A stretch of DNA of 64,000 nucleotides from an uncultured Rhodobacterales bacterium (GTDB taxonomy: Bacteria; Pseudomonadota; Alphaproteobacteria; Rhodobacterales; Rhodobacteraceae): NCBI GenBank assembly GCA_964351755.1, contig CAYGPT010000001.1, positions 95,474 through 159,473 of the forward strand. Reading direction: 5' to 3'. A program made the position numbers and the translations under genes. Of the stretch, positions 8,915-49,869 are shown piece after piece. Every line of letters starts with the position of its first letter. Position 1 is the stretch's first letter. A model generated the notes under the pieces. It ran no database searches, was not told the DNA's origin, and saw nothing but the letters and a program-made list of their open reading frames with translations.

Positions 8915-10303
8915 ATGTCGAGCATTCTTACAAACAACAGCGCAATGGTTGCGCTGCAAACGCTGAAATCCATCAACAAGAATCTGGCGATGACGCAAAG
9001 CGAGATTTCGACCGGTAAGTCGATCGCAACCGCCAAGGACAACTCCGCCGTCTGGGCGATTTCGAAAGTCATGGAATCCGACGTCAAAGGGTTTCAGGCC
9101 ATTTCGGAAAGCCTCAGCCTCGGTGACGCGACGGTTGCCGTTGCTGCGAACGCATCTGAGACGATCACCGACCTTTTGACCGATATGAAAGAGCGGATCG
9201 TCGCGGCCCAAGAGGAAAACGTTGACCTGGATGCGATCCAGGCGGACATCGTGGCGTTCCGCGATCAGATCACGTCGGTTGTGGCTGCTGCACAATTCAA
9301 CGGTCAGAACCTGATCGACGGATCGAGCACAGTTGACCTGAGCGTCCTGTCTTCGCTGGATCGCAACCTTGACGGTACGGTGACTTCGAATTCGATCGAC
9401 GTCGTTCGTCAAAACCTGTCCGTTACGGATTCCACAGCCACACAAGTGGTGGGTACAACCAACGGCGCCGCGTCCCAAGCTGCCGCGAGCGCGGCATTTT
9501 CCGTCCTGAACAACGCGACGATTGCCGACGGCGCAAATACGACAGGTACTGCTGACGACACCTATTTCGAAAACGACGATCTGACGGATGAAACTACCAA
9601 CGCTCCGGCAGTATTGGCCACCGGTACTTCGGCCGCCATCTCCGTCAACGAAGTACAGGCGGGTGCATCCTACCAGATCTACCTGAGCGATGTGGAGATC
9701 AACGTCGTCGGTGGTGGCACAACCACCGGCGCCCGTACGTTCGAGTATGTTGCCAGCGAAGCTGACTCCGTGACCGATGTCGCCAACGAACTGGCAAGCC
9801 AGATCAACGCGTTCTTCGGCGCGGCTACTGGCAGCGGTGACTACTCTGCGGCAGTGAACAGCACGACCAACGCTGCGGGTGATGTGAACCTGAACGAAAT
9901 TCAGATCACAAACTCTTCGGGTACCGCCATCAACATCAGTGCACAGCTCACACAAGGCGGTACTGCTGGAACAAGTTCATCCAGTGGCGGCCTGGGCGCA
10001 CTGTCCTCGCTTGATGTGACACAGAACGCGACAGGTGCCTTGACTGCGATTGACGGTCTGATCCAGCAATCCATCGATGCGTCGGCAGCCTTTGGTTCGG
10101 CTCAAAACCGTATCGATACTCAGTCCGAGTTCATCTCGAAGCTGACCGACTCCCTGAAATCGGGCATCGGTTCGCTGGTGGACGCCGACATGGAAGAAGT
10201 TTCGGCCCGCCTGCAGGCGTTGCAGACCCAGCAGCAGTTGGGTGTTCAGTCGCTGTCGATCGCCAACCAGGCGCCGCAGTCGATACTGTCACTCTTCCGC
10301 TAA
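8915..10303 (+). CDS. fliC: Flagellin
   Basis: The N-terminus (ILTNNSAMVALQTLKSINKNLAMTQSEISTGKSI) and C-terminus (LQALQTQQQLGVQSLSIANQAPQSILSLFR) are canonical flagellin D0/D1 segments, with an A/T/S/N-rich variable centre. An AAGGA RBS lies 7 nt before ATG 8915; ATG 8909 is an alternative. Confidence 0.95.
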   Translation: MSSILTNNSAMVALQTLKSINKNLAMTQSEISTGKSIATAKDNSAVWAISKVMESDVKGFQAISESLSLGDATVAVAANASETITDLLTDMKERIVAAQEENVDLDAIQADIVAFRDQITSVVAAAQFNGQNLIDGSSTVDLSVLSSLDRNLDGTVTSNSIDVVRQNLSVTDSTATQVVGTTNGAASQAAASAAFSVLNNATIADGANTTGTADDTYFENDDLTDETTNAPAVLATGTSAAISVNEVQAGASYQIYLSDVEINVVGGGTTTGARTFEYVASEADSVTDVANELASQINAFFGAATGSGDYSAAVNSTTNAAGDVNLNEIQITNSSGTAINISAQLTQGGTAGTSSSSGGLGALSSLDVTQNATGALTAIDGLIQQSIDASAAFGSAQNRIDTQSEFISKLTDSLKSGIGSLVDADMEEVSARLQALQTQQQLGVQSLSIANQAPQSILSLFR

Positions 10304-40599: not shown

Positions 40600-41655
40600 A
40601 TGACCGATCTGATCAAAGAATACGACGCCTTGGTGGCCGCTGGCACGCTTAAACGCGACGACGCGCAAGAGGCGGTGCTGCCGGAATTCGAACGCATCCG
40701 CGCCGCTTTGGCCGAACCGTTCAAGCGCGGACTATTCCGTAAGGCGCCCGAGCCGCCCAAAGGCTTGTACCTTTGGGGCGGTGTGGGGCGCGGCAAATCC
40801 ATGCTGATGGATTTCTTTGTCTCTCATGTCGAGGCACCGGCCCGCCGCGTACACTTCCACGCCTTCATGCAGGAAATCCACGCCGCCATGCACATAGCCC
40901 GCAAACGGGGCGTGGACGATGCGATTGCGCCAGTGGCGGCAGATGTTGCGGCCTCTGTCCGGTTGCTGGCCTTTGACGAAATGCAGATCAGCGACATCAC
41001 CGATGCGATGATCGTAGGCCGATTGTTCGAAGCGCTTTTTACTGCCGGGGTGGTGGTGGTGACCACGTCGAACCGGGTGCCGGATGATCTTTACAAGGAT
41101 GGGCTGAACCGTCAGCTGTTCCTTCCCTTCATCGAGCAGTTGAAACAGCGGATGGTGGTTTGGGAACTCGCCTCGCCCACCGATTACCGGCAAGACAGGC
41201 TGACTGGCAGTCCGACCTATTTCACACCTCTGGGTGGTGAGGCGCGCAAACAGATGAATGCGATCTGGACTGATCTGTCGGGGGGCGAGGCTCAGCCGTT
41301 GGACATTATCGTGACCGGGCGCACTCTGACCGTGCCGCAGTTCCGAAACGGGGTCGGACGCGCCAGCTTTTACGACCTGTGCGCCAAGCCGTTGGGGCCA
41401 GGTGACTTTCTGGCCATTGCCGCTGCCTGCAAGGTGTTGATGGTCGATGACATACCTTGCCTATCACGCAGCAACTTCAACGAAGCCAAGCGGTTCGTGA
41501 CCATGATCGATGCGCTCTACGAGGCGCACGTGCGGCTGATCTGTTCGGCGGCGGCGGTGCCTGAGATGCTGTATCTCGAAGGGGAGGGCACGTTCGAATT
41601 CGAACGCACCGCCTCGCGCCTTCGCGAGATGCAAAGCGATGATTGGATGGCCTAG
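40600..41655 (+). CDS. zapE: ZapE/AFG1-family ATPase
   Basis: Walker A GGVGRGKSMLMD, Walker B LLAFDEMQISD. ATG 40600 is preferred over the ORF-track start 40555. Confidence 0.85.
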   Translation: MTDLIKEYDALVAAGTLKRDDAQEAVLPEFERIRAALAEPFKRGLFRKAPEPPKGLYLWGGVGRGKSMLMDFFVSHVEAPARRVHFHAFMQEIHAAMHIARKRGVDDAIAPVAADVAASVRLLAFDEMQISDITDAMIVGRLFEALFTAGVVVVTTSNRVPDDLYKDGLNRQLFLPFIEQLKQRMVVWELASPTDYRQDRLTGSPTYFTPLGGEARKQMNAIWTDLSGGEAQPLDIIVTGRTLTVPQFRNGVGRASFYDLCAKPLGPGDFLAIAAACKVLMVDDIPCLSRSNFNEAKRFVTMIDALYEAHVRLICSAAAVPEMLYLEGEGTFEFERTASRLREMQSDDWMA

Positions 41656-42932
41656 CCGTTTTCCCGCAGAACTGTTCCGGCGAGATACAGTGATCCACAG
41701 ATCAGCACCCGTGCATGCGGCGTGTGATCAAGGATCCCGGAAAGGGCAGTCGCCAGGTCGGGTGCTTCGGACGCATTTAGCCCCACGTCGCGTGCTGCTT
41801 GTGCGGTGTCGCCAGCGGGTAAGGTTGCTGCCTCTCCCGGAATGGAAAGGGCCGTCAGACTGTCCGCAACGTCTGCCAAAGGTCCGAGATAGCCGCGCAC
41901 ATCCTTGGTGTTGAGCATACCACAGATCAAGTGCGTTGGCCGTTTCGGCATATTGCGCAGGACCGAGGCAATAGCGGCGCCGGCAGCGGGGTTGTGGCCG
42001 CCGTCCAACCACAGCTCTGCCCCGGATGCGGCAGCGATGTCTGCAAGCGGGCCGGACTGCAATCGCTGCATCCTTGCAGGCCAATGGGTGTTTGTCAGGG
42101 CGGCGGTGCAAGCAGCCTCATCACATCCCAAATGGCGCAAAGCGGCCAGCGCCATGCCAGCATTCTGGATTTGGTGATCGCCGGGTAGCACCGGACGGGG
42201 TAGGTCCAGCAGCCCGGTTTCATCCTGATAGATCATGCCATCGCGTTCCGCGCTGGCATGCCAATGCTGGCCATACGCCAGCAGTGGCGCACCCAGTCGC
42301 GCGGCACGCGCCTCGATTACCTCAAGGCCCGCATCATCCTGCGGGCCAACAACACAAGGAACACCGCGCTTGATGATGCCGGCCTTTTCCCCCGCGATGG
42401 CTGTTAGCGTGTTACCCAGATAGGCCTCGTGATCCATCGAAACGGGCGTGATGACGGTGAGGGCAGGTGCATCGATCACGTTGGTAGCATCCAGGCGCCC
42501 ACCAAGACCAACCTCAAGCAGCGTGTAGTCAGCCGAAGTGCGGGCGAAGGCCAGCAGTGCGGCACAAGTCGTGATCTCGAAATAGGTGATGTCCGCCCCA
42601 TCATTGGCGGCATAGCATTCGTCCAGCATCGCCGTCAGGTCGGGTTCTGAAATCAGCGTGCCGGCCAGCCTGATACGCTCGTGAAACCGCGCAAGGTGGG
42701 GTGAGGTATATGCGTGCACCCGCTTGCCCGAGGCTTCCAACCCGGCGCGGATCATCGCTTGGGTCGATCCCTTGCCGTTAGTGCCCGCGATATGGATCAC
42801 GGGCGGCAGATCATCCTGCGGATTTCCCAGCGCGGTCAGAAGCCGCCAGACACGGTCCAGTGTCAGGTCGATGATCTTGGGGTGCAGCGCCATCATCCGG
42901 GCAAGGATGGCGTCGGATGTGCCCGTGCTCAT
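41652..42932 (-). CDS. folC: Bifunctional folylpolyglutamate synthase/dihydrofolate synthase
   Basis: Mur-ligase P-loop IHIAGTNGKGST. ATG 42932 overlaps the accD stop (ATGA). The 883-aa ORF-track entry is an over-extension. Confidence 0.9.
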   Translation of the reverse strand: MSTGTSDAILARMMALHPKIIDLTLDRVWRLLTALGNPQDDLPPVIHIAGTNGKGSTQAMIRAGLEASGKRVHAYTSPHLARFHERIRLAGTLISEPDLTAMLDECYAANDGADITYFEITTCAALLAFARTSADYTLLEVGLGGRLDATNVIDAPALTVITPVSMDHEAYLGNTLTAIAGEKAGIIKRGVPCVVGPQDDAGLEVIEARAARLGAPLLAYGQHWHASAERDGMIYQDETGLLDLPRPVLPGDHQIQNAGMALAALRHLGCDEAACTAALTNTHWPARMQRLQSGPLADIAAASGAELWLDGGHNPAAGAAIASVLRNMPKRPTHLICGMLNTKDVRGYLGPLADVADSLTALSIPGEAATLPAGDTAQAARDVGLNASEAPDLATALSGILDHTPHARVLICGSLYLAGTVLRENG

Positions 42933-43906
42933 GACGTGGGTGCATCGCCTGTGCTGGTCTGGTCGGTGTTCGGCTTGGCGTCGGCCTTGGGTTCGAGAGC
43001 CGGCATCGGTTCCTGATCCAAAACCGGCGCGGGCAGATCGCCTGCGACGGCAGGTGGCAGACCCATCAGCATCCGGGTGATGGTGATCAATTCGTCTCGC
43101 ATCTCGGTCCGTTTCGTGACCCGGTCCAGCATTCCGTGATCCAGCAGGTATTCGGCACGCTGGAAGCCTTCGGGCAGTTTTTCGCGAATGGTCTGTTCGA
43201 TCACGCGCGGCCCGGCAAAGCAGATCAGCGCGTTGGGTTCGGCGATATGCACATCGCCCAGCATGGCATAGCTGGCCGTCACACCGCCCGTGGTCGGGTG
43301 GGTCAGAACGACGATGTAAGGCAGGCCCGCTTCCTTCAGCATCTGCACGGCAACGGTGCTGCGCGGCATCTGCATCAGGCTCAGGATGCCCTCTTGCATC
43401 CGCGCGCCCCCGGCGGCGGAAAACAGGATCAACGGGCGCTTGAGCTTCACGGCCTCCTGCGCGGCAGCGATGATCGCGTTGCCCACATACATGCCCATCG
43501 AACCGGCCATGAAACTGAAGTCCTGCGCGGCGGCGATGATGGGCGTGCGCCCGATCTGGCCTGCCGCGACCAGCATCGCCTCGGCCTCTCCCGTGCTCTT
43601 TTGCGCACTGCGCATGCGTTCCGGATATTTTTTCTGATCGCGGAAATGCAGCGGGTCGGCAAGCGGAGCGGGTACTTTGACTTCGGTGAACACACCGCCG
43701 TCGAACAGGGCGCGAAACCGGTCGCGTGGGGTGATCCCCATGTGGTGGTTGCAATTGGTGCAGACGTTCAGATTGTCGCTTAGTTCGCGGTGAAACAGCA
43801 TGGTCCCGCACTCGTCGCACTTGGTCCACAGGTTGTCGGGCGTTTCGCGACGCGAAAAGATCGAATTGATCCGGGGGCGGACATAGTTGCTGATCCAGTT
43901 CATCAC
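42929..43906 (-). CDS. accD: Acetyl-CoA carboxylase carboxyltransferase beta subunit
   Basis: N-terminal Zn ribbon (CDECGTMLF...CTNCNHH) and carboxyltransferase core (FSFMAGSMG). Confidence 0.95.
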   Translation of the reverse strand: MMNWISNYVRPRINSIFSRRETPDNLWTKCDECGTMLFHRELSDNLNVCTNCNHHMGITPRDRFRALFDGGVFTEVKVPAPLADPLHFRDQKKYPERMRSAQKSTGEAEAMLVAAGQIGRTPIIAAAQDFSFMAGSMGMYVGNAIIAAAQEAVKLKRPLILFSAAGGARMQEGILSLMQMPRSTVAVQMLKEAGLPYIVVLTHPTTGGVTASYAMLGDVHIAEPNALICFAGPRVIEQTIREKLPEGFQRAEYLLDHGMLDRVTKRTEMRDELITITRMLMGLPPAVAGDLPAPVLDQEPMPALEPKADAKPNTDQTSTGDAPTS

Positions 43907-43960
43907 GTCTTCCTGCTGCGGCGTCGTGTGTCAGATAATCCGGGCAAGGGGCAAATGCAA

Positions 43961-44866
43961 TCAGGCCCTGATCGCAAGCCGCGCTACCAGCCAGCTGACC
44001 AGCATAAAGCCGAAGTCGACAGGCAGCCACGCGGCCATCTGTGCCTCGTCCGACATGCCAAACGGCAAAACATAAAGCGCCAGTCCCGACATCTCGTCCG
44101 GTGTGCTGGTCAGAATCATGGCTGAGATGTTGTTGACGAAGTGTACCGCCATGGCTGGACCTAGGGTTCCTGACCGCGCAGTCAGGTCCGCCATCAGGAT
44201 ACCGAACATCGTCGCCCACGCCACGATGGTCCATGCATTGCTGCCCGCGCTTTCGGGCAAGTAGTGACCGATGCCGAACAGTGCGGCAGGTGCCAGCATC
44301 CACACCAGCGGCGATTTGAATCGTGCCGCCAGCTGCTGTTGTACATAGCCGCGGAAGAATACTTCCTCGGCACTGGTCTGCACTAGTACCGCCAGCAAAG
44401 CGACCGGAAGCAGCAAAAACCAGCGACCAAACCCCATATTGCGCTGCAACGGATCGCCAAAATCATAGGGGGGGAGAACCCAGATCGCGGCGGTCAGGAC
44501 GATCATGGCAACCACCACGATTCCGAACTGGCGCGCGGCAAGCGCCGGATCACCGATCAGGGTCAAGGGTCTGCGTTTGTGGACCATGATGACCACCAGC
44601 CCGGCAGAGACGGCCAGCAGACCCAGTTGGCTGAGCAAAACCAACATACCGGCTGCCGTTTGCCCCGATTGACTGTCTGCAAGGATCGCCTGTGCCGCCG
44701 CAGGCTCCAACAGCTGCAACAAGCTGCCAAAGACCAGTTGGCTGAGCGCCAGAAAAAAAGCCGCAGCCAGAACTAGGCCAAGGCACAATCGCCATAGCTG
44801 CGGCGCCGCCAGCGCAGGCGCGACAAAGCGGGCGTGCGGGCGATAGTCAAAGGACCAGACGCTCAT
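43961..44866 (-). CDS. CPBP (CAAX/Abi) family intramembrane metalloprotease
   Basis: Polytopic membrane protein with CPBP motifs EEVFFRGY, FGIGH and HFVNN. Its ATG overlaps the stop of the upstream 1025-aa gene (ATGA). Confidence 0.8.
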   Translation of the reverse strand: MSVWSFDYRPHARFVAPALAAPQLWRLCLGLVLAAAFFLALSQLVFGSLLQLLEPAAAQAILADSQSGQTAAGMLVLLSQLGLLAVSAGLVVIMVHKRRPLTLIGDPALAARQFGIVVVAMIVLTAAIWVLPPYDFGDPLQRNMGFGRWFLLLPVALLAVLVQTSAEEVFFRGYVQQQLAARFKSPLVWMLAPAALFGIGHYLPESAGSNAWTIVAWATMFGILMADLTARSGTLGPAMAVHFVNNISAMILTSTPDEMSGLALYVLPFGMSDEAQMAAWLPVDFGFMLVSWLVARLAIRA

Positions 44867-47800
44867 TCGTCCAGCGGCGGCGGTGGCGGCCCCTCGTCTT
44901 GCGGGATTGAAATATTGGCCTGACGCAGCAATTCGGCTGCCCCTGTGAGATGGCCGGCCACGGTTTGCAGCAGGCCCAGCAAAACGGTGGAGTCGTTTTC
45001 AAGGACTGCCCGGAATTCTGCCGCACCGATCCGCAGGAATTTGGATTTGGCCGTCGCGGTCAGGTTCAACTGCCGCGGTTCGTCCAAAATAATGGCCAGA
45101 TCGCCGATCAACCGCCCCGGCTCGACCGCTGAAACCGTCCTTTGGCCGCCATCAGGCGCATCATAGCTCAGCAGACCGGAGCCAGAGATACACAGATAGG
45201 CCGCGTCCGGTTTTTCGTTCATGGAAAAGATGCGCTGATCGGTGTTTGCATCGTACCACTGCGCTGCAAAGGCGAGCAGGCGCTGATTGCGTGTGCTGAT
45301 ATTGGCGAACATGTCGGTGCGCGCGATGACGCGCAACTTGCGGCTCAGATCGTCGCTTTCTGTATCTTCGTGGTTCTGCACGCCGTCGATCCGCCCGCCC
45401 TTGATCTCGACGAACAGGTCGTAGGCATCCGGGTTCTCGAATTTTTCTTCGAGGAATATCAGCGTTGCGTCCGGCAACATGCCGCGCAGCGCGTTGCGCG
45501 TTGTGCGCCGCTCGTCCGCGTCGTGGCTGGCCAAGGCACGGTCCAGAACAAGAACATCCGGCCGTTTGATCCCCGCCCGCGAAAACGCCGCCCGTTCGTG
45601 GAACACCGGGGGCAGATTGGTGCCGCCAAGGCCCGTGGGAATGTCGAACACGGTTTCGGCAACCAGACGACGAAGCCCCTCGTCCTTGATCAGGTCGGCG
45701 ACAAGGTCCTCCACCATCTCACCTTTGAGGCCCGCAACCATGGAAATTCGGCCATAAAGCGCATTTTCCAGAAGGGTCAAACGCGGCAAATAATTGTCCG
45801 GCGCGATCGGCACGAAAAAGTCCTCGGTTTGTTCGCGCAGCGCGTCCCCATTGGCTTTGCGAATCGCGACGATTTCCTTTTTGAAACTGTCGGGAAAGGC
45901 TGGTCCGATCTGTTCGGCTGTGAAGGCAAAAGGCACGGTCAGCAGCAACGCGAATTCCTCGTCGCTCAGAGCCGCGTCTCCCTTTTCCCGGCGGCGTTGG
46001 GCGATATCGACCAGACGTTCGTACATCTCTTCCGAGATGTTCAGGGCTGTAAACAGCGGGTGGTTCGTGCCGTCCATTCCAAAGGTCTGGTGCAGCGTTT
46101 CTATCAGTGTCTGCGAGATTGCGATGCCTTGTTCGGCCACCCCATGATCAAGGATGAGGTTCATGAACATCGTGTTTGCCGCCAGTCCTTCCTGACTGAT
46201 TTCTCGTTTGGGCGAAGCAAATAGCAGGTTGCCGCCCAAAGGCACTGCTGGGTTGAATTCGTCAGGGTCAAAGCGGTGAACAACGTCGATGACTCCCTTC
46301 TCGCGCAGGCACTTTTCGACTGCGGGGCGCAATTTCACGATGGCTTTGGCCAGCTCGGGGTGGGTTTCGGCGTCGATCCGGCTGGTGAGCATGCGCCGGA
46401 ACATGAACTCGTCAATGCCCATCGCCTGCACCAGCTCGAACCACCATTTGCGGATGTCATCAGAGTCGTTCAGCCCTGCAAGGGCTGGATCGACCCAGTC
46501 CGTGTTCACTTGGTCCGCGCTATTTCCCGCGCGGAGGGATTCGATCAGCATCTTGTCCTTCTTGCCCCGATCAATCGGGACGGTCCTTGGGCTGGTCATC
46601 AGCGGCATCAGCAGGTTGCTGCCCAGTGTGCCGTCAAACAGGTAGGGGCGGGAATGCGCATAACCGATGCGCGCCGCGATCACGGCTTGATGCATCTGGG
46701 ACAAGTCAAATCCGGCGATTTCGATCTTGCCGCGTGTGGGCAGTACCTCGCGCGTCAGCAGTTCGGCAAAGGCCGTACGTTCGGATTCGTTGCGCGCCTG
46801 AATGGCGACCCGCGCGCCCTTCGGGATGGTCAGGTCGATATTTTCCAGCACCGGATTGTTGTCCGCATTGCGCACCGTAACGTCCTTGATGACGATGTCG
46901 CCCTGCAGGTGCGGAATTTCTTCTGGCTCACCTTCGAAAAGGGCCTCGTCGATCATGCCGTTCGGCCCGAACCGCTCTGTCACAACTTCCCAGCGGACGG
47001 CCATATCCTGCGTCTGGTTGTAGTAGGTCAAAAGCTCTTTCCACGGGCTCGACAGGTCCTTGTAAGCCGCCAGCGCTGCGACCAGCGCGCCCACGGTGAT
47101 TTGCCCCTGAATGGCAAGGTAACCACCGACGGAATAGAAAAAGAACGGGGTCAGCTGCGTGATGAAGTTGTTAAGGAACTTCATCAGAAACTTTTGTTGG
47201 TAGATCTTGAACCGGATGTAGAACAAGCGCCCCAAACGGTCGGTGAATTGCGCAAGGCGATAGCGCAGGCCGCCATTGGTGCGCAGGTCTGAAATGCCCG
47301 CAGCACTTTCCCCGATTTCGGAGGAAAAGGCGCGCATTTCCTTGATCCGTTCCTTGTTCAGCAGGTTGATGCGCCGTTGCATCATCGGGATCAACCAGGC
47401 CTGCAGGGGGATCAGCGCAATACCCGCCAGCCCGAACCAGAAGGATTGGATGAACAGGAACACGAGAATGATCAGCATCTGCCCGGCCTGAAACACCGGT
47501 TGGGCCACCATGTCGCCCATCAGCCCGCCCATGGGCTCTGCCTCGGATGTGACCATGCTGACCAATTCGCCCTGACCGGTCGAGCGGAAGTAGCTGCGCG
47601 GAAACCGCAGCATGCGTGCGATCAGCGAATAACGGAACCGGCGCAACAGGCGTTCGGCCGTCACACCCTTCATCGTGTTCAGGCGCATTTTCAGCAAGCC
47701 ATGCGCAACGACCGCCGCAAGATAACCGAAACACAAAGCCAGCAGAAACTGAACTTGGGTCAGCTCAAAGTTCCAGACGGCAATGACATCGTCTGCCGCG

Positions 47801-47940
47801 CCGATGGCATCGTTGATGATACGCTTGGGCAGTTCGAGCGTGGCGTACAGGAACGGGAACGTCACAACTGTCAGCGCGAGCAGTGCAAGCTGATCTTTTT
47901 TGGAATGCTTCCAGATGAAAGCGAAAAGGCTGGAATCCAT
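44863..47940 (-). CDS. ABC-exporter-like membrane protein with a degenerate nucleotide-binding domain and a C-terminal cyclic-nucleotide-binding domain
   Basis: aa 1-330 form a type-I exporter TMD. The Walker A position reads [13 protein letters not shown], the signature LGGTN, and Walker B VLVLDR. There is a ~320-aa insertion. aa ~873-1000 form a cNMP-binding fold ([17 protein letters not shown]). Confidence 0.8.
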
Positions 47941-48105
47941 GAGATCGTCCTGATTGGTCCTGCCCGATTACGGGTCGACATCAAACCCCTGCCGGAACCG
48001 TCTGAACTACCTAGTGCCCGGGTGTACGCATTACAACCGCGTCCTGCGCTTGCAGGGATGCGGACCAATGGCTATTCCGGTGCAAACGTTTCAGGGAGAG
48101 GCCAG

Positions 48106-49869
48106 ATGCCAGACGGCAAATTCGACAAATCCAGATTGCCCAGCCGCCACGTGACCGAAGGCCCGGCGCGCGCGCCGCACCGGTCCTATTACTACGCCAT
48201 GGGCATGACCGAAGAGGAAATCCATCAGCCACTGGTCGGGGTTGCCACCTGCTGGAACGAGGCCGCGCCCTGCAACATCGCGCTGAACCGTCAGGCCCAG
48301 TCGGTCAAGGTTGGGGTCAAGGCCGCGTCGGGGACTCCGCGCGAATTCACCACCATTACCGTGACCGACGGCATCGCCATGGGTCACGAGGGTATGCGAT
48401 CGTCTTTGGCCAGCCGCGAGGCGATTGCCGACACGGTCGAGTTGACCATGCGCGGGCATTGTTATGACGCCATCGTGGGTCTGGCGGGGTGTGACAAGTC
48501 CCTGCCGGGCATGATGATGGCGATGATCCGTCTGAATGTGCCATCCGTGTTCCTTTATGGCGGGTCCATCCTGCCGGGTCGTGTGGCCAAGAATGCGTCC
48601 GTCCCTGCCGAATACCTCGACCGCGACCTGACAGTTCAGGACATGTTCGAAGCCGTCGGCCATCAGCAGAACGGCACAATGTCCGAGGCGGAACTCGACA
48701 TTCTCGAACGGGTGGCCTGCCCCTCTGCCGGAGCTTGCGGCGGACAGTTCACGGCCAACACGATGGCTTGCGTGTCCGAAGCGATCGGCCTTGCCCTGCC
48801 CAACTCCTCCGGCGCACCGGCGCCATACGAGAGCCGCGATGAGTACGCCAAGGCATCCGGTGCTGCCGTCATGAACCTGATCGAAAAGAACATCCGTGCC
48901 CGTGATATCTGTACCCGTCAAGCGTTCGAAAACGCGGCGCGCATCGTGGCCTGCACAGGCGGGTCGACCAACGCGGGCCTTCACTTGCCTGCGATGGCGC
49001 ACGAGGCGGGCATTGACTTTTTTCTCGAAGACGTGTGCGAGATTTTCCGCGATACCCCTTACTTCGTCGACCTCAAACCAGGCGGGCAATATGTGGCCAA
49101 GGATCTCTACGAGGTGGGCGGCGTTCCTGTCGTGATGAAGGAACTGCGCAAGGCAGGTTTGATCCACGAGGATTGCATGACGGCCACAGGCTATTCCATC
49201 GGCGAGGAGCTGGACAAGAACACGCTCGAAGCGGATGGCAAAGTCATCTATCCGGTCGAAACGCCGATCACAAAGACTGGCGGTGTTGTTGGCCTGAAAG
49301 GCAACGTCGCACCCGAGGGGGCCATCGTGAAAGTTGCTGGCATCGAACCCCAGCACCAGATTTTCACCGGCCCGGCCCGCGTCTTCGAATGCGAGCAGGA
49401 CGCGTTCGAGTCCGTGCAAAACCGCACCTACAAGGAAGGCGACGTATTCGTCATCCGCAACGAAGGCCCTTCGGGCGGTCCCGGCATGCGCGAAATGCTG
49501 GCGACGACTGCGGCCTTGTCCGGGCAAGGCATGGGCAAGAAGGTGGCTCTGATCACCGATGGCCGTTTTTCGGGTGCGACGCGTGGCTTTTGTGTGGGTC
49601 ATGTTGGCCCCGAAGCAGCCCACGGCGGCCCAATCGCCCTGCTGCAAGACGGCGATGTAATCACAATCAACGCAATTGAAGGGTCAATCAACGTCGCCCT
49701 TTCGGACGATGAATTGGCGGAGCGCAAGGCGGCATGGGCCGGCCCGCGCGAAACGCTTTATGGTGCCGGCGCGCTTTGGAAATATGCCCAATTGGTGGGC
49801 GCCACCTACAAAGGGGCGGTCACCCATCCCGGCGCCAAGGCTGAGCGTCATGACTACATGGAGCTGTAA
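48106..49869 (+). CDS. ilvD: Dihydroxy-acid dehydratase
   Basis: IlvD/Edd family motifs ([51 protein letters not shown]). ATG 48106 has a GGGAGAGG RBS. Confidence 0.95.

Follow-up and report, generated by a model that had tools for sequence, protein, structure and literature searches.

The window, a 64,000-nucleotide stretch of DNA from an uncultured Rhodobacterales bacterium (contig CAYGPT010000001.1, from a metagenome-assembled genome (MAG)), contains a 1025-residue open reading frame (ORF) at positions 44863-47940 on the minus strand. It encodes an ABC-exporter-like protein in which the ATP-handling motifs are replaced, the nucleotide-binding domain (NBD) is expanded by 324 residues, and the C terminus is a cyclic nucleotide-binding (CNB) fold domain. 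The best explanation of this protein, and the one toward which we lean, is that it would be a ligand-switched, ATP-independent member of the exporter fold; because the ATP-handling residues have been lost and a cyclic nucleotide-type sensor has been gained, a small-molecule signal rather than ATP hydrolysis is probably in control. Its relatives indicate that it is the fused form of a large family of CNB-partnered ABC exporters with a tripled helical subdomain. An initial annotation, made from the letters of the DNA, had given the correct extent of this ORF, and we correct its strand to minus. The gene and its parts are as follows.

44863..47940, minus strand: whole gene (P0001); ABC-exporter fold, degenerate expanded NBD, C-terminal CNB domain
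46951..47940, minus strand: transmembrane domain, aa 1-330; six long helices, type IV (ABCB-like) exporter
46606..46908, minus strand: first part of the NBD, aa 345-445; β-strands, degenerate Walker A (A382...R388), Q-loop position S430
45634..46605, minus strand: "insertion" of ~324 aa, aa 446-769; extra Q-loop/helical-subdomain units
45361..45633, minus strand: second part of the NBD, aa 770-860; L776-PPVF, VLVLD800-R801, D-loop ALASHD807, H-loop position E832
44941..45327, minus strand: C-terminal CNB-fold domain, aa 872-1000; PF00027, cassette G946...R956-Q-L

The protein has the fold of a type IV ABC half-exporter

Pfam places an ABC_membrane domain (PF00664) at aa 61-290 (3e-21; 76.7 bits against a cut-off of 28) and a cNMP_binding domain (PF00027) at aa 901-983 (1.2e-10; 41.6 bits against a cut-off of 27.5). 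ABC_tran (PF00005), scored on the whole protein, reaches 22.6 bits, under its gathering cut-off of 25, and aligns at aa 365-461, which covers profile positions 1-80 of 137 only. The best sequence matches among solved structures are type IV ABC exporters, and PCAT1 (4s0f) aligns in two stretches, aa 90-445 and aa 770-852. An AlphaFold2 model of the whole protein (mean predicted local distance difference test (pLDDT) score of 79) contains six long membrane helices (residues 5-46, 62-110, 137-165, 167-214, 225-277, and 283-323), a RecA-like β core, a helical expansion, and a β-roll CNB domain, and its top Foldseek matches are PCAT1, TmrAB, MsbA (these three at E of about 1e-15), and P-glycoprotein. 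None of the NCBIfam equivalog cut-offs was reached for the MsbA, CphA-associated ABC, HepA, CydDC, or type I secretion system models; the best score was for MsbA (138 bits against 602), and CphA_assoc_ABC scored 70 against 880. We conclude that the protein has the fold of a type IV ABC half-exporter. The initial annotation's reading of aa 1-330 as a normal exporter membrane domain is borne out by both the profile match and the six modeled helices.

The membrane domain also carries a family-wide motif, T-x-E-x-E-P-x-G-G-x-x-G-D, at aa 131-150 (about nucleotides 47491-47550), in the cytoplasmic extension of the third transmembrane helix. E133 is invariant, and E135, P136, and G142 are nearly so. 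Model confidence is lowest here (pLDDT below 50), a sign of a conserved hinge or break of a kind that ordinary exporters do not show. Among sequencing runs, only DNA runs were found to hold the sequence (four runs from one biofilm metagenome study, at 100%), and none was found among RNA runs.

Every ATP-handling motif is replaced, and the replacements are conserved

We assigned motif equivalents through the alignment to PCAT1.

Walker A: GESGSGKTT in PCAT1; A382-RNESE-R388-TA here
Q-loop: Gln in PCAT1; S430 here
Signature: LSEGQ in PCAT1; L776-PPVF780 here
Walker B: ILILDE in PCAT1; VLVLD800-R801 here
H-loop: His in PCAT1; E832 here

All three Walker A glycines are gone and the lysine is an arginine, as had been noted from the translation, and the same alignment upholds the earlier reading of a Q-loop without Gln, a Walker B catalytic Glu changed to Arg (R801), and an H-loop without His. 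The signature was also correctly described as lost, although the segment then assigned to it, LGGTN, lies just upstream of the equivalent residues. The comparison with the ABC_tran profile that had been proposed earlier gave the truncated, subthreshold alignment described above.

These replacements are not peculiar to one genome. We fetched eighty genomic loci, among which we defined A-type orthologs by at least 53% identity (55 loci) and B-type copies, related to a second gene described below (22 loci). The Walker lysine position is Arg in 46 A-type loci, Ala in six, Ser in two, and Gly in one, and is never Lys; the first P-loop glycine position lacks glycine in all 55, and the Q-loop Gln, the Walker B Glu, and the H-loop His are each present in 0/55. 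Two acidic positions are better kept, with the Walker B Asp in 37/55 and the D-loop Asp in 49/55. The Walker lysine, catalytic Glu, and H-loop His are likewise missing from all 22 B-type loci, where the lysine position is always Arg, as it is in 20 of 21 close representatives. The losses far exceed chance and recur in 55 of 55 orthologous loci. As far as residues can tell, canonical ATP binding or hydrolysis by this NBD is no longer possible.

The gene itself is intact and selectively maintained. Our first protein search was filled by full-length homologs of 67-87% identity (among other sources, from Tateyamaria, Roseobacter, and Sulfitobacter), all of which bear no annotation beyond "ABC transporter transmembrane domain-containing protein," and full-length orthologs with the same motif losses occur across roseobacter genera at 53-87% identity, including one in a cultured species, Ruegeria pomeroyi (63%). 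Against five orthologs, the overall ratio of nonsynonymous to synonymous substitution rates (dN/dS; Nei-Gojobori) was 0.10-0.16, and by segment (transmembrane domain, two NBD halves, insertion, and CNB domain) it was 0.08-0.35, values that are rough because dS is close to saturation but that point in the same direction for all segments. The membrane domain was the most strongly conserved segment (0.08-0.13). All segments are therefore under purifying selection. The ortholog survey that the initial annotation had called for, covering the 55 A-type and 22 B-type loci together with dN/dS, finds the degeneracy conserved, which favors a functional pseudo-ATPase over decay.

The insertion repeats the cassette's own Q-loop/helical unit

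Since the PCAT1 alignment splits at aa 445/770, this protein has 324 residues where PCAT1 has about 34 between Q-loop and signature. Three segments (aa about 418-545, 548-700, and 703-790) share the pattern [FY]-N-(P)-x6-N-x-L-F-G, which corresponds to the stretch after the Q-loop in ordinary ABC cassettes. Profile-profile comparison with hhalign, using segment profiles cut from a 124-sequence family alignment, related segments 2 and 3 with a probability of 98.3% (E of 1e-14), segments 1 and 3 with 93.6%, and segments 1 and 2 with 89%, and in each of two independent family alignments the pattern asparagines N442, N571, and N726 never vary. We conclude that the insertion is, on this profile evidence, two extra copies of the cassette's own Q-loop/helical-subdomain unit. 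A helical insertion of ~320 residues at this place had been reported earlier, and that description stands; its triplicated nature had been missed.

AlphaFold2 modeling of the insertion, also proposed earlier, gave a confident structure, with pLDDT of 80-92 in the whole-protein model and 80.3 when the segment was modeled alone. The excised model had no structural neighbor in the PDB (all Foldseek E>1), and Pfam and PDB sequence searches found nothing within the insertion. Large inserts that part an ABC cassette into a half with Walker A and Q-loop and a half with signature and Walker B are established in SMC/Rad50 and UvrA. The protein described here shares that position, but the SMC/Rad50 and UvrA inserts are coiled coils or DNA- or UvrB-binding domains, whereas here the insert consists of two extra copies of the cassette's own unit, and SMC/Rad50 and UvrA remain active ATPases, unlike this degenerate cassette.

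The C-terminal domain is a CNB fold with a modified cassette

The assignment of aa ~873-1000 to a CNB fold is confirmed by the PF00027 match and by PDB matches, the best of which, at 6e-12, is 5d1i_A, a "cyclic nucleotide-binding protein" of 131 residues that stands alone; PKA and CRP-family proteins come next. In the model the domain comprises strands at 894-972 and then C-helices. Within the phosphate-binding cassette, Gly946 and Arg956 are invariant, and the retained Arg argues for a ligand that would bear a phosphate. The cassette reads G-D...R-Q-L in A-type proteins and G-E...R-A-L in B-type proteins; the Glu has become Asp in 54 of 55 A-type loci, and [ST]-A has become Q-L. Distant fused relatives carry the canonical G-E...R-[TS]-A (E in 28/36, T/S in 21/36, and A in 23/36). 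A search of the genome for cyclases, as suggested earlier, returned 11 class III homologs, none of them on the window's contig.

A second, equally degenerate copy is encoded in the same genome

Paralog B lies on another contig (C77, 12515-15553, minus strand) and is 51% identical to the window protein (A) over its full length. Its motif losses match those of A (GISAENDEDRRAL, VGHANSRP, NLPALF, and ILILDK). The initial annotation had stated that no partner ABC half-transporter is adjacent, which holds (the neighbors are ilvD and a CPBP protease), but it had missed this paralog. A family member is found in 41 of 201 genera of Rhodobacteraceae, and a B-type copy accompanies the A-type copy in 25 of the 27 genomes that have the latter. 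This co-occurrence is compatible with an A/B heterodimer and equally with shared descent. With respect to a canonical partner, the sole family-type partner in the genome is this equally degenerate paralog, and any dimer of A and/or B is predicted to be without a competent ATP site.

Paralog B shows several features of its own. The codon aligned to the first methionine of A is ATA or ATC in 21 of 22 paralog B sequences from many genera (loci L076-L101, with the match start mostly at position 10001, plus the C77 copy) and ATG in one. A GGAG/GGGG-like element lies 6-12 nucleotides upstream of the ATA/ATC, in-frame stops occur shortly upstream (directly adjacent in L079 and L100), and the first canonical start is 17 codons downstream and would cut the conserved N terminus, IE.S.F.FIWKY. 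Translation of paralog B seems to begin with ATA or ATC, a conserved rare initiation codon, which would imply very low or regulated translation. In its own genome, it lies directly upstream of, and co-oriented with, tamA (Omp85/POTRA) and tamB (L021: 514-6449, minus strand). We did not build on this TamAB link, because the arrangement occurs only in Tateyamaria (3 of 22 B loci) and other genera lack it. A small divergent ORF is conserved upstream of paralog B in many genera (L076-L099, about 200-600 bp); it has no Pfam match, and its sequences are 30-39% identical to the copy in the window's genome (L021:9600-10616, minus strand).

Unfused relatives keep a CNB partner next door

An exhaustive search of 1.84 billion representatives retrieved 559 proteins at E<=1e-30, which fall into two size classes: about 1000-1060 residues with the CNB domain, and about 840-930 residues without it. 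The insertion alone matches in 132 of 401 evenly sampled alphaproteobacterial genomes, and by source names and record titles there are also members in Gammaproteobacteria (Acidiferrobacteraceae, Zooshikella, and Granulosicoccus). In nine of nine unfused loci examined, a CNB-only ORF of 145-190 residues lies immediately downstream, and these stand-alone ORFs match a hidden Markov model of the fused CNB domains with E of about 1e-40. The initial annotation had missed this family, and the tie to a CNB-fold sensor is closer than it had supposed.

One such pair is found on plasmid pRL11 of Rhizobium johnstonii 3841, where RL_RS29995 is followed directly by the CNB protein RL_RS29990. Aligned to the window protein, RL_RS29995 shows 32% identity across 856 residues, the insertion among them (E 4e-137), and its Walker A Lys and Walker B are altered too. 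The Rhizobium pair differs from the window protein in that its CNB is a separate polypeptide and in that it adjoins three glycosyltransferases, an Opp-like importer, and a cyclase, neighbors that are not at the window locus. In a published insertion sequencing (INSeq) study, pRL110047 ("permease of ABC exporter") appears among the genes required in pea nodules (bioRxiv 10.1101/2020.05.07.082560); through the old locus tag mapping, we could not confirm that pRL110047 is RL_RS29995.

Across the family, the Walker lysine is kept by 33 of 124 representatives and the Walker B Glu by 24 of 124, and GxxGxGK and LSxxQ survive in about a third of the distant members. On a FastTree phylogeny the Walker lysine and the Walker B Glu each change state at least 19 times, and the fused/unfused state changes at least seven times. 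We considered a link between fusion and degeneracy and rejected it, since fusion state and retention of the Walker lysine are uncorrelated on the family tree. With 33 of 124 keeping the lysine and at least 19 state changes, ATP chemistry appears to be repeatedly dispensable in this family, in which the CNB partnership persists. Public annotations of its members are generic. A full-text literature search, which lay mostly outside subscription journals and whose silence is not proof, found no published description of the architecture.

Two further observations concern the spread of the family. A 1178-residue relative, P0338 (33% identity), contains a GGDEF domain (PF00990) besides its CNB domain, which would tie at least one lineage of the family to the synthesis of c-di-GMP (cyclic diguanylate). 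Copies that are 55-57% identical to the roseobacter A-type occur in gammaproteobacterial MAGs, Granulosicoccus among them (L059, L064, L066, L069, and L072); one of these MAGs holds two copies, and none is in the CPBP-accD-folC context described below. This pattern suggests horizontal transfer between marine Alpha- and Gammaproteobacteria.

The gene overlaps that of an intramembrane protease

The neighborhood of the gene contains the following features.

43961..44866, minus strand: CPBP (Rce1-like/Abi) intramembrane protease, 301 aa; PF02517, 2.2e-17
47941..48129, no strand assigned: 189-bp spacer between the gene and the divergent ilvD; presumed promoter region

The stop codon of the ABC-like gene and the ATG of the CPBP gene overlap as ATGA, and the catalytic motifs of the protease are all present: SAEEVFFRG (EExxxR), FGIGH (FxxxH), and HFVNN (HxxxN). 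Downstream follow accD and then folC, and the order ABC-like gene, CPBP, accD, folC is found in about 50 of 55 A-type loci. No CPBP neighbor accompanies paralog B, the Granulosicoccus copies, any unfused relative, or the gene at one roseobacter locus. We consider it probable, from gene order, that the ABC-like gene and CPBP form a roseobacter-specific operon and not a property of the family. The divergent upstream neighbor is ilvD, whose match begins at residue 252 of a long plus-strand ORF. A consensus promoter and terminator scan was uninformative, since its counts equaled chance.

A possible link to cyanophycin was also considered, because an 883-residue ORF at 41652-44303 (minus strand) resembled cyanophycin synthetase (compare the NCBIfam model "cyanophycin-associated ABC"). 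We rejected it because this frame is over-extended; the real genes in the interval are folC (about residues 465-883 of the ORF) and, in another frame, accD (42929-43906).

Discussion

We propose the following mechanism. As half-transporters generally do, the protein would form dimers, pairing with a second copy of itself or with the degenerate paralog B, and its NBD-like domains would continue to serve as a clamp in the cytoplasm that determines which state the membrane domain adopts. A small ligand, which could be cyclic AMP (cAMP), cyclic GMP (cGMP), or a related nucleotide, would bind the CNB-fold domain and in this way replace ATP binding and hydrolysis as the switch, and the tripled Q-loop/helical platform would probably relay the signal. 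The output could be gated, non-energized passage or flipping of an envelope-related substrate; alternatively, it could be a conformational change sensed by the CPBP intramembrane protease, which is probably co-transcribed. The initial annotation had suggested a cyclic nucleotide monophosphate (cNMP)-gated or regulatory pseudo-transporter; the conserved motif loss, the fusion or adjacency of the CNB domain, and the 11 cyclases support the regulatory pseudo-transporter, while gating by a cNMP is something we infer. A more specific version, in which the family would be a new functional class of ABC-fold protein and its members ligand-gated conduits or flippases without any use of ATP, counterparts of CFTR gated by a nucleotide messenger and working as an A/B heterodimer in roseobacters, is one that we offer tentatively. 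In this version a ligand of the second-messenger type, bound to the fused or detached CNB domain, would open and close the exporter-type membrane domain by way of the tripled platform.

Several points weigh against this proposal. The cassette reads G-D...R-Q-L in place of G-E...R-[ST]-A, and because it deviates in this clade, the ligand may not be cAMP or cGMP; in another ABC exporter, HetC, the CNB domain has been shown in vitro to bind ppGpp (PMC10986499). Within the window, the gene is not linked to any gene for a substrate, a cyclase, or the envelope. The adjacency to CPBP is confined to roseobacters and sits inside a generally syntenic block (accD-folC). The Arg at the Walker lysine position and the frequent Walker B Asp could support non-canonical binding of phosphate or nucleotide, and a canonical exporter encoded elsewhere could serve as a partner, two readings that we weigh in turn below.

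We think it rather unlikely that the protein is a signaling scaffold that moves no substrate, in which the exporter fold would pass on the ligand state of the CNB domain and so regulate the probably co-transcribed CPBP protease. The start/stop overlap with an intact protease gene fits such a role, as does the position of that gene immediately after the ABC-like gene in about 50 of 55 A-type loci, and NCBIfam NF041647, a model of an ABC permease fused to a CPBP protease that matches weakly here, shows that ABC-CPBP partnerships exist. CPBP cannot be the general output of the family, however, because there is no CPBP neighbor at paralog B, in the Granulosicoccus copies, at one roseobacter locus, or in any unfused relative; moreover, the membrane domain is the most conserved segment (dN/dS 0.08-0.13), as would be expected if its role went beyond that of an anchor.

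Less probable again is that ATP or ADP would still be bound non-canonically, as a structural or regulatory ligand without hydrolysis, with the CNB domain serving only to modulate. The close clades do place Arg at the Walker lysine position (46/55, 22/22, and 20/21), the Walker B and D-loop Asp residues are often kept (37/55 and 49/55), and about a third of distant members retain GxxGxGK and LSxxQ. Against this, the Mg-coordinating Ser/Thr and all three glycines of the P-loop have been lost or vary, P-x-V-F stands where the signature Ser-Gly-Gly-Gln would clamp ATP from across the dimer, the Q-loop Gln and H-loop His are missing in all 55 loci, and the ABC_tran score is below the Pfam cut-off.

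Heterodimeric exporters with one degenerate site, such as TM287/288, TmrAB, and BmrCD, are common, and the genome encodes other ABC exporters (weak tblastn matches on contigs C75 and C2), so that sequence leaves room for the window protein to be one half of an ATP-driven heterodimer with a competent, canonical half-transporter encoded elsewhere and a single dead site. We regard this as improbable. Known pairs are normally adjacent genes and none is adjacent here, the only close relative in the genome, paralog B, is equally degenerate, a 324-residue tripled platform would face a normal NBD asymmetrically, and the at least 19 independent changes of the Walker lysine argue that catalysis is not maintained. 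Finally, the substitution of every catalytic motif could be read as a normal ABC exporter in decay, but the intact 1025-codon frame, an overall dN/dS of 0.10-0.16, a shared substitution pattern in 55 orthologous loci from many genera, and a model that is confident across the degenerate NBD and insertion dismiss that reading; we ruled it out on ortholog conservation and dN/dS.

ABC exporters are defined by ATP-powered alternating access. If the dead sites, the repeated loss, and the constant link to a sensor all hold, this family would represent an exporter fold driven or gated by a non-ATP input. If true, this would add a direct membrane target to bacterial cNMP signaling; in Alphaproteobacteria such signaling is poorly understood, although cyclases are numerous there (11 in this genome). 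With the roseobacter form the question becomes tractable, since a single polypeptide comprises sensor and transporter, none of the ATPase motifs is left intact, and the ortholog in Ruegeria pomeroyi comes from a cultured species. The finding belongs to the ABC exporter superfamily, and a categorically new mechanism is possible.

Comparison with known systems

The six-helix membrane domain and the order of membrane domain followed by NBD are common to the window protein and the type IV homodimeric half-exporters MsbA, PCAT1, Sav1866, and BmrA, from which it differs by its replaced ATPase motifs, its tripled helical subdomain (+324 aa), and its C-terminal CNB domain. Precedents for non-hydrolytic NBD sites in the exporter fold are found in TM287/288, TmrAB, BmrCD, TAP1/2, and CFTR/SUR. 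In these proteins one site remains competent and the degenerate one still binds ATP, whereas here both sites of a homodimer or of an A/B dimer would be without P-loop, signature, Glu, and His. CFTR is, in addition, an exporter fold turned into a gated channel under the control of the cAMP pathway; that control is exerted by phosphorylation, whereas here it would be by direct binding of a ligand to the fused CNB domain.

HetC of Nostoc PCC 7120 is an ABC exporter that likewise bears a CNB-fold regulatory domain, which is required for function (PMC10986499). HetC is a peptidase-containing (C39) protein and an active ATPase with an essential catalytic residue, and its CNB domain is N-terminal (PMC10986499) rather than C-terminal as here; it is also without the NBD insertion. 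The MloK1 and HCN/CNG channels have the plan that we propose for the window protein, a membrane conduit gated by a C-terminal CNB domain, and CNB domains of this type in the PDB match that of the window protein weakly. Their membrane fold is unrelated, a voltage-gated-like tetramer as opposed to an ABC exporter dimer, and their cassettes are the canonical R-[ST]-A.

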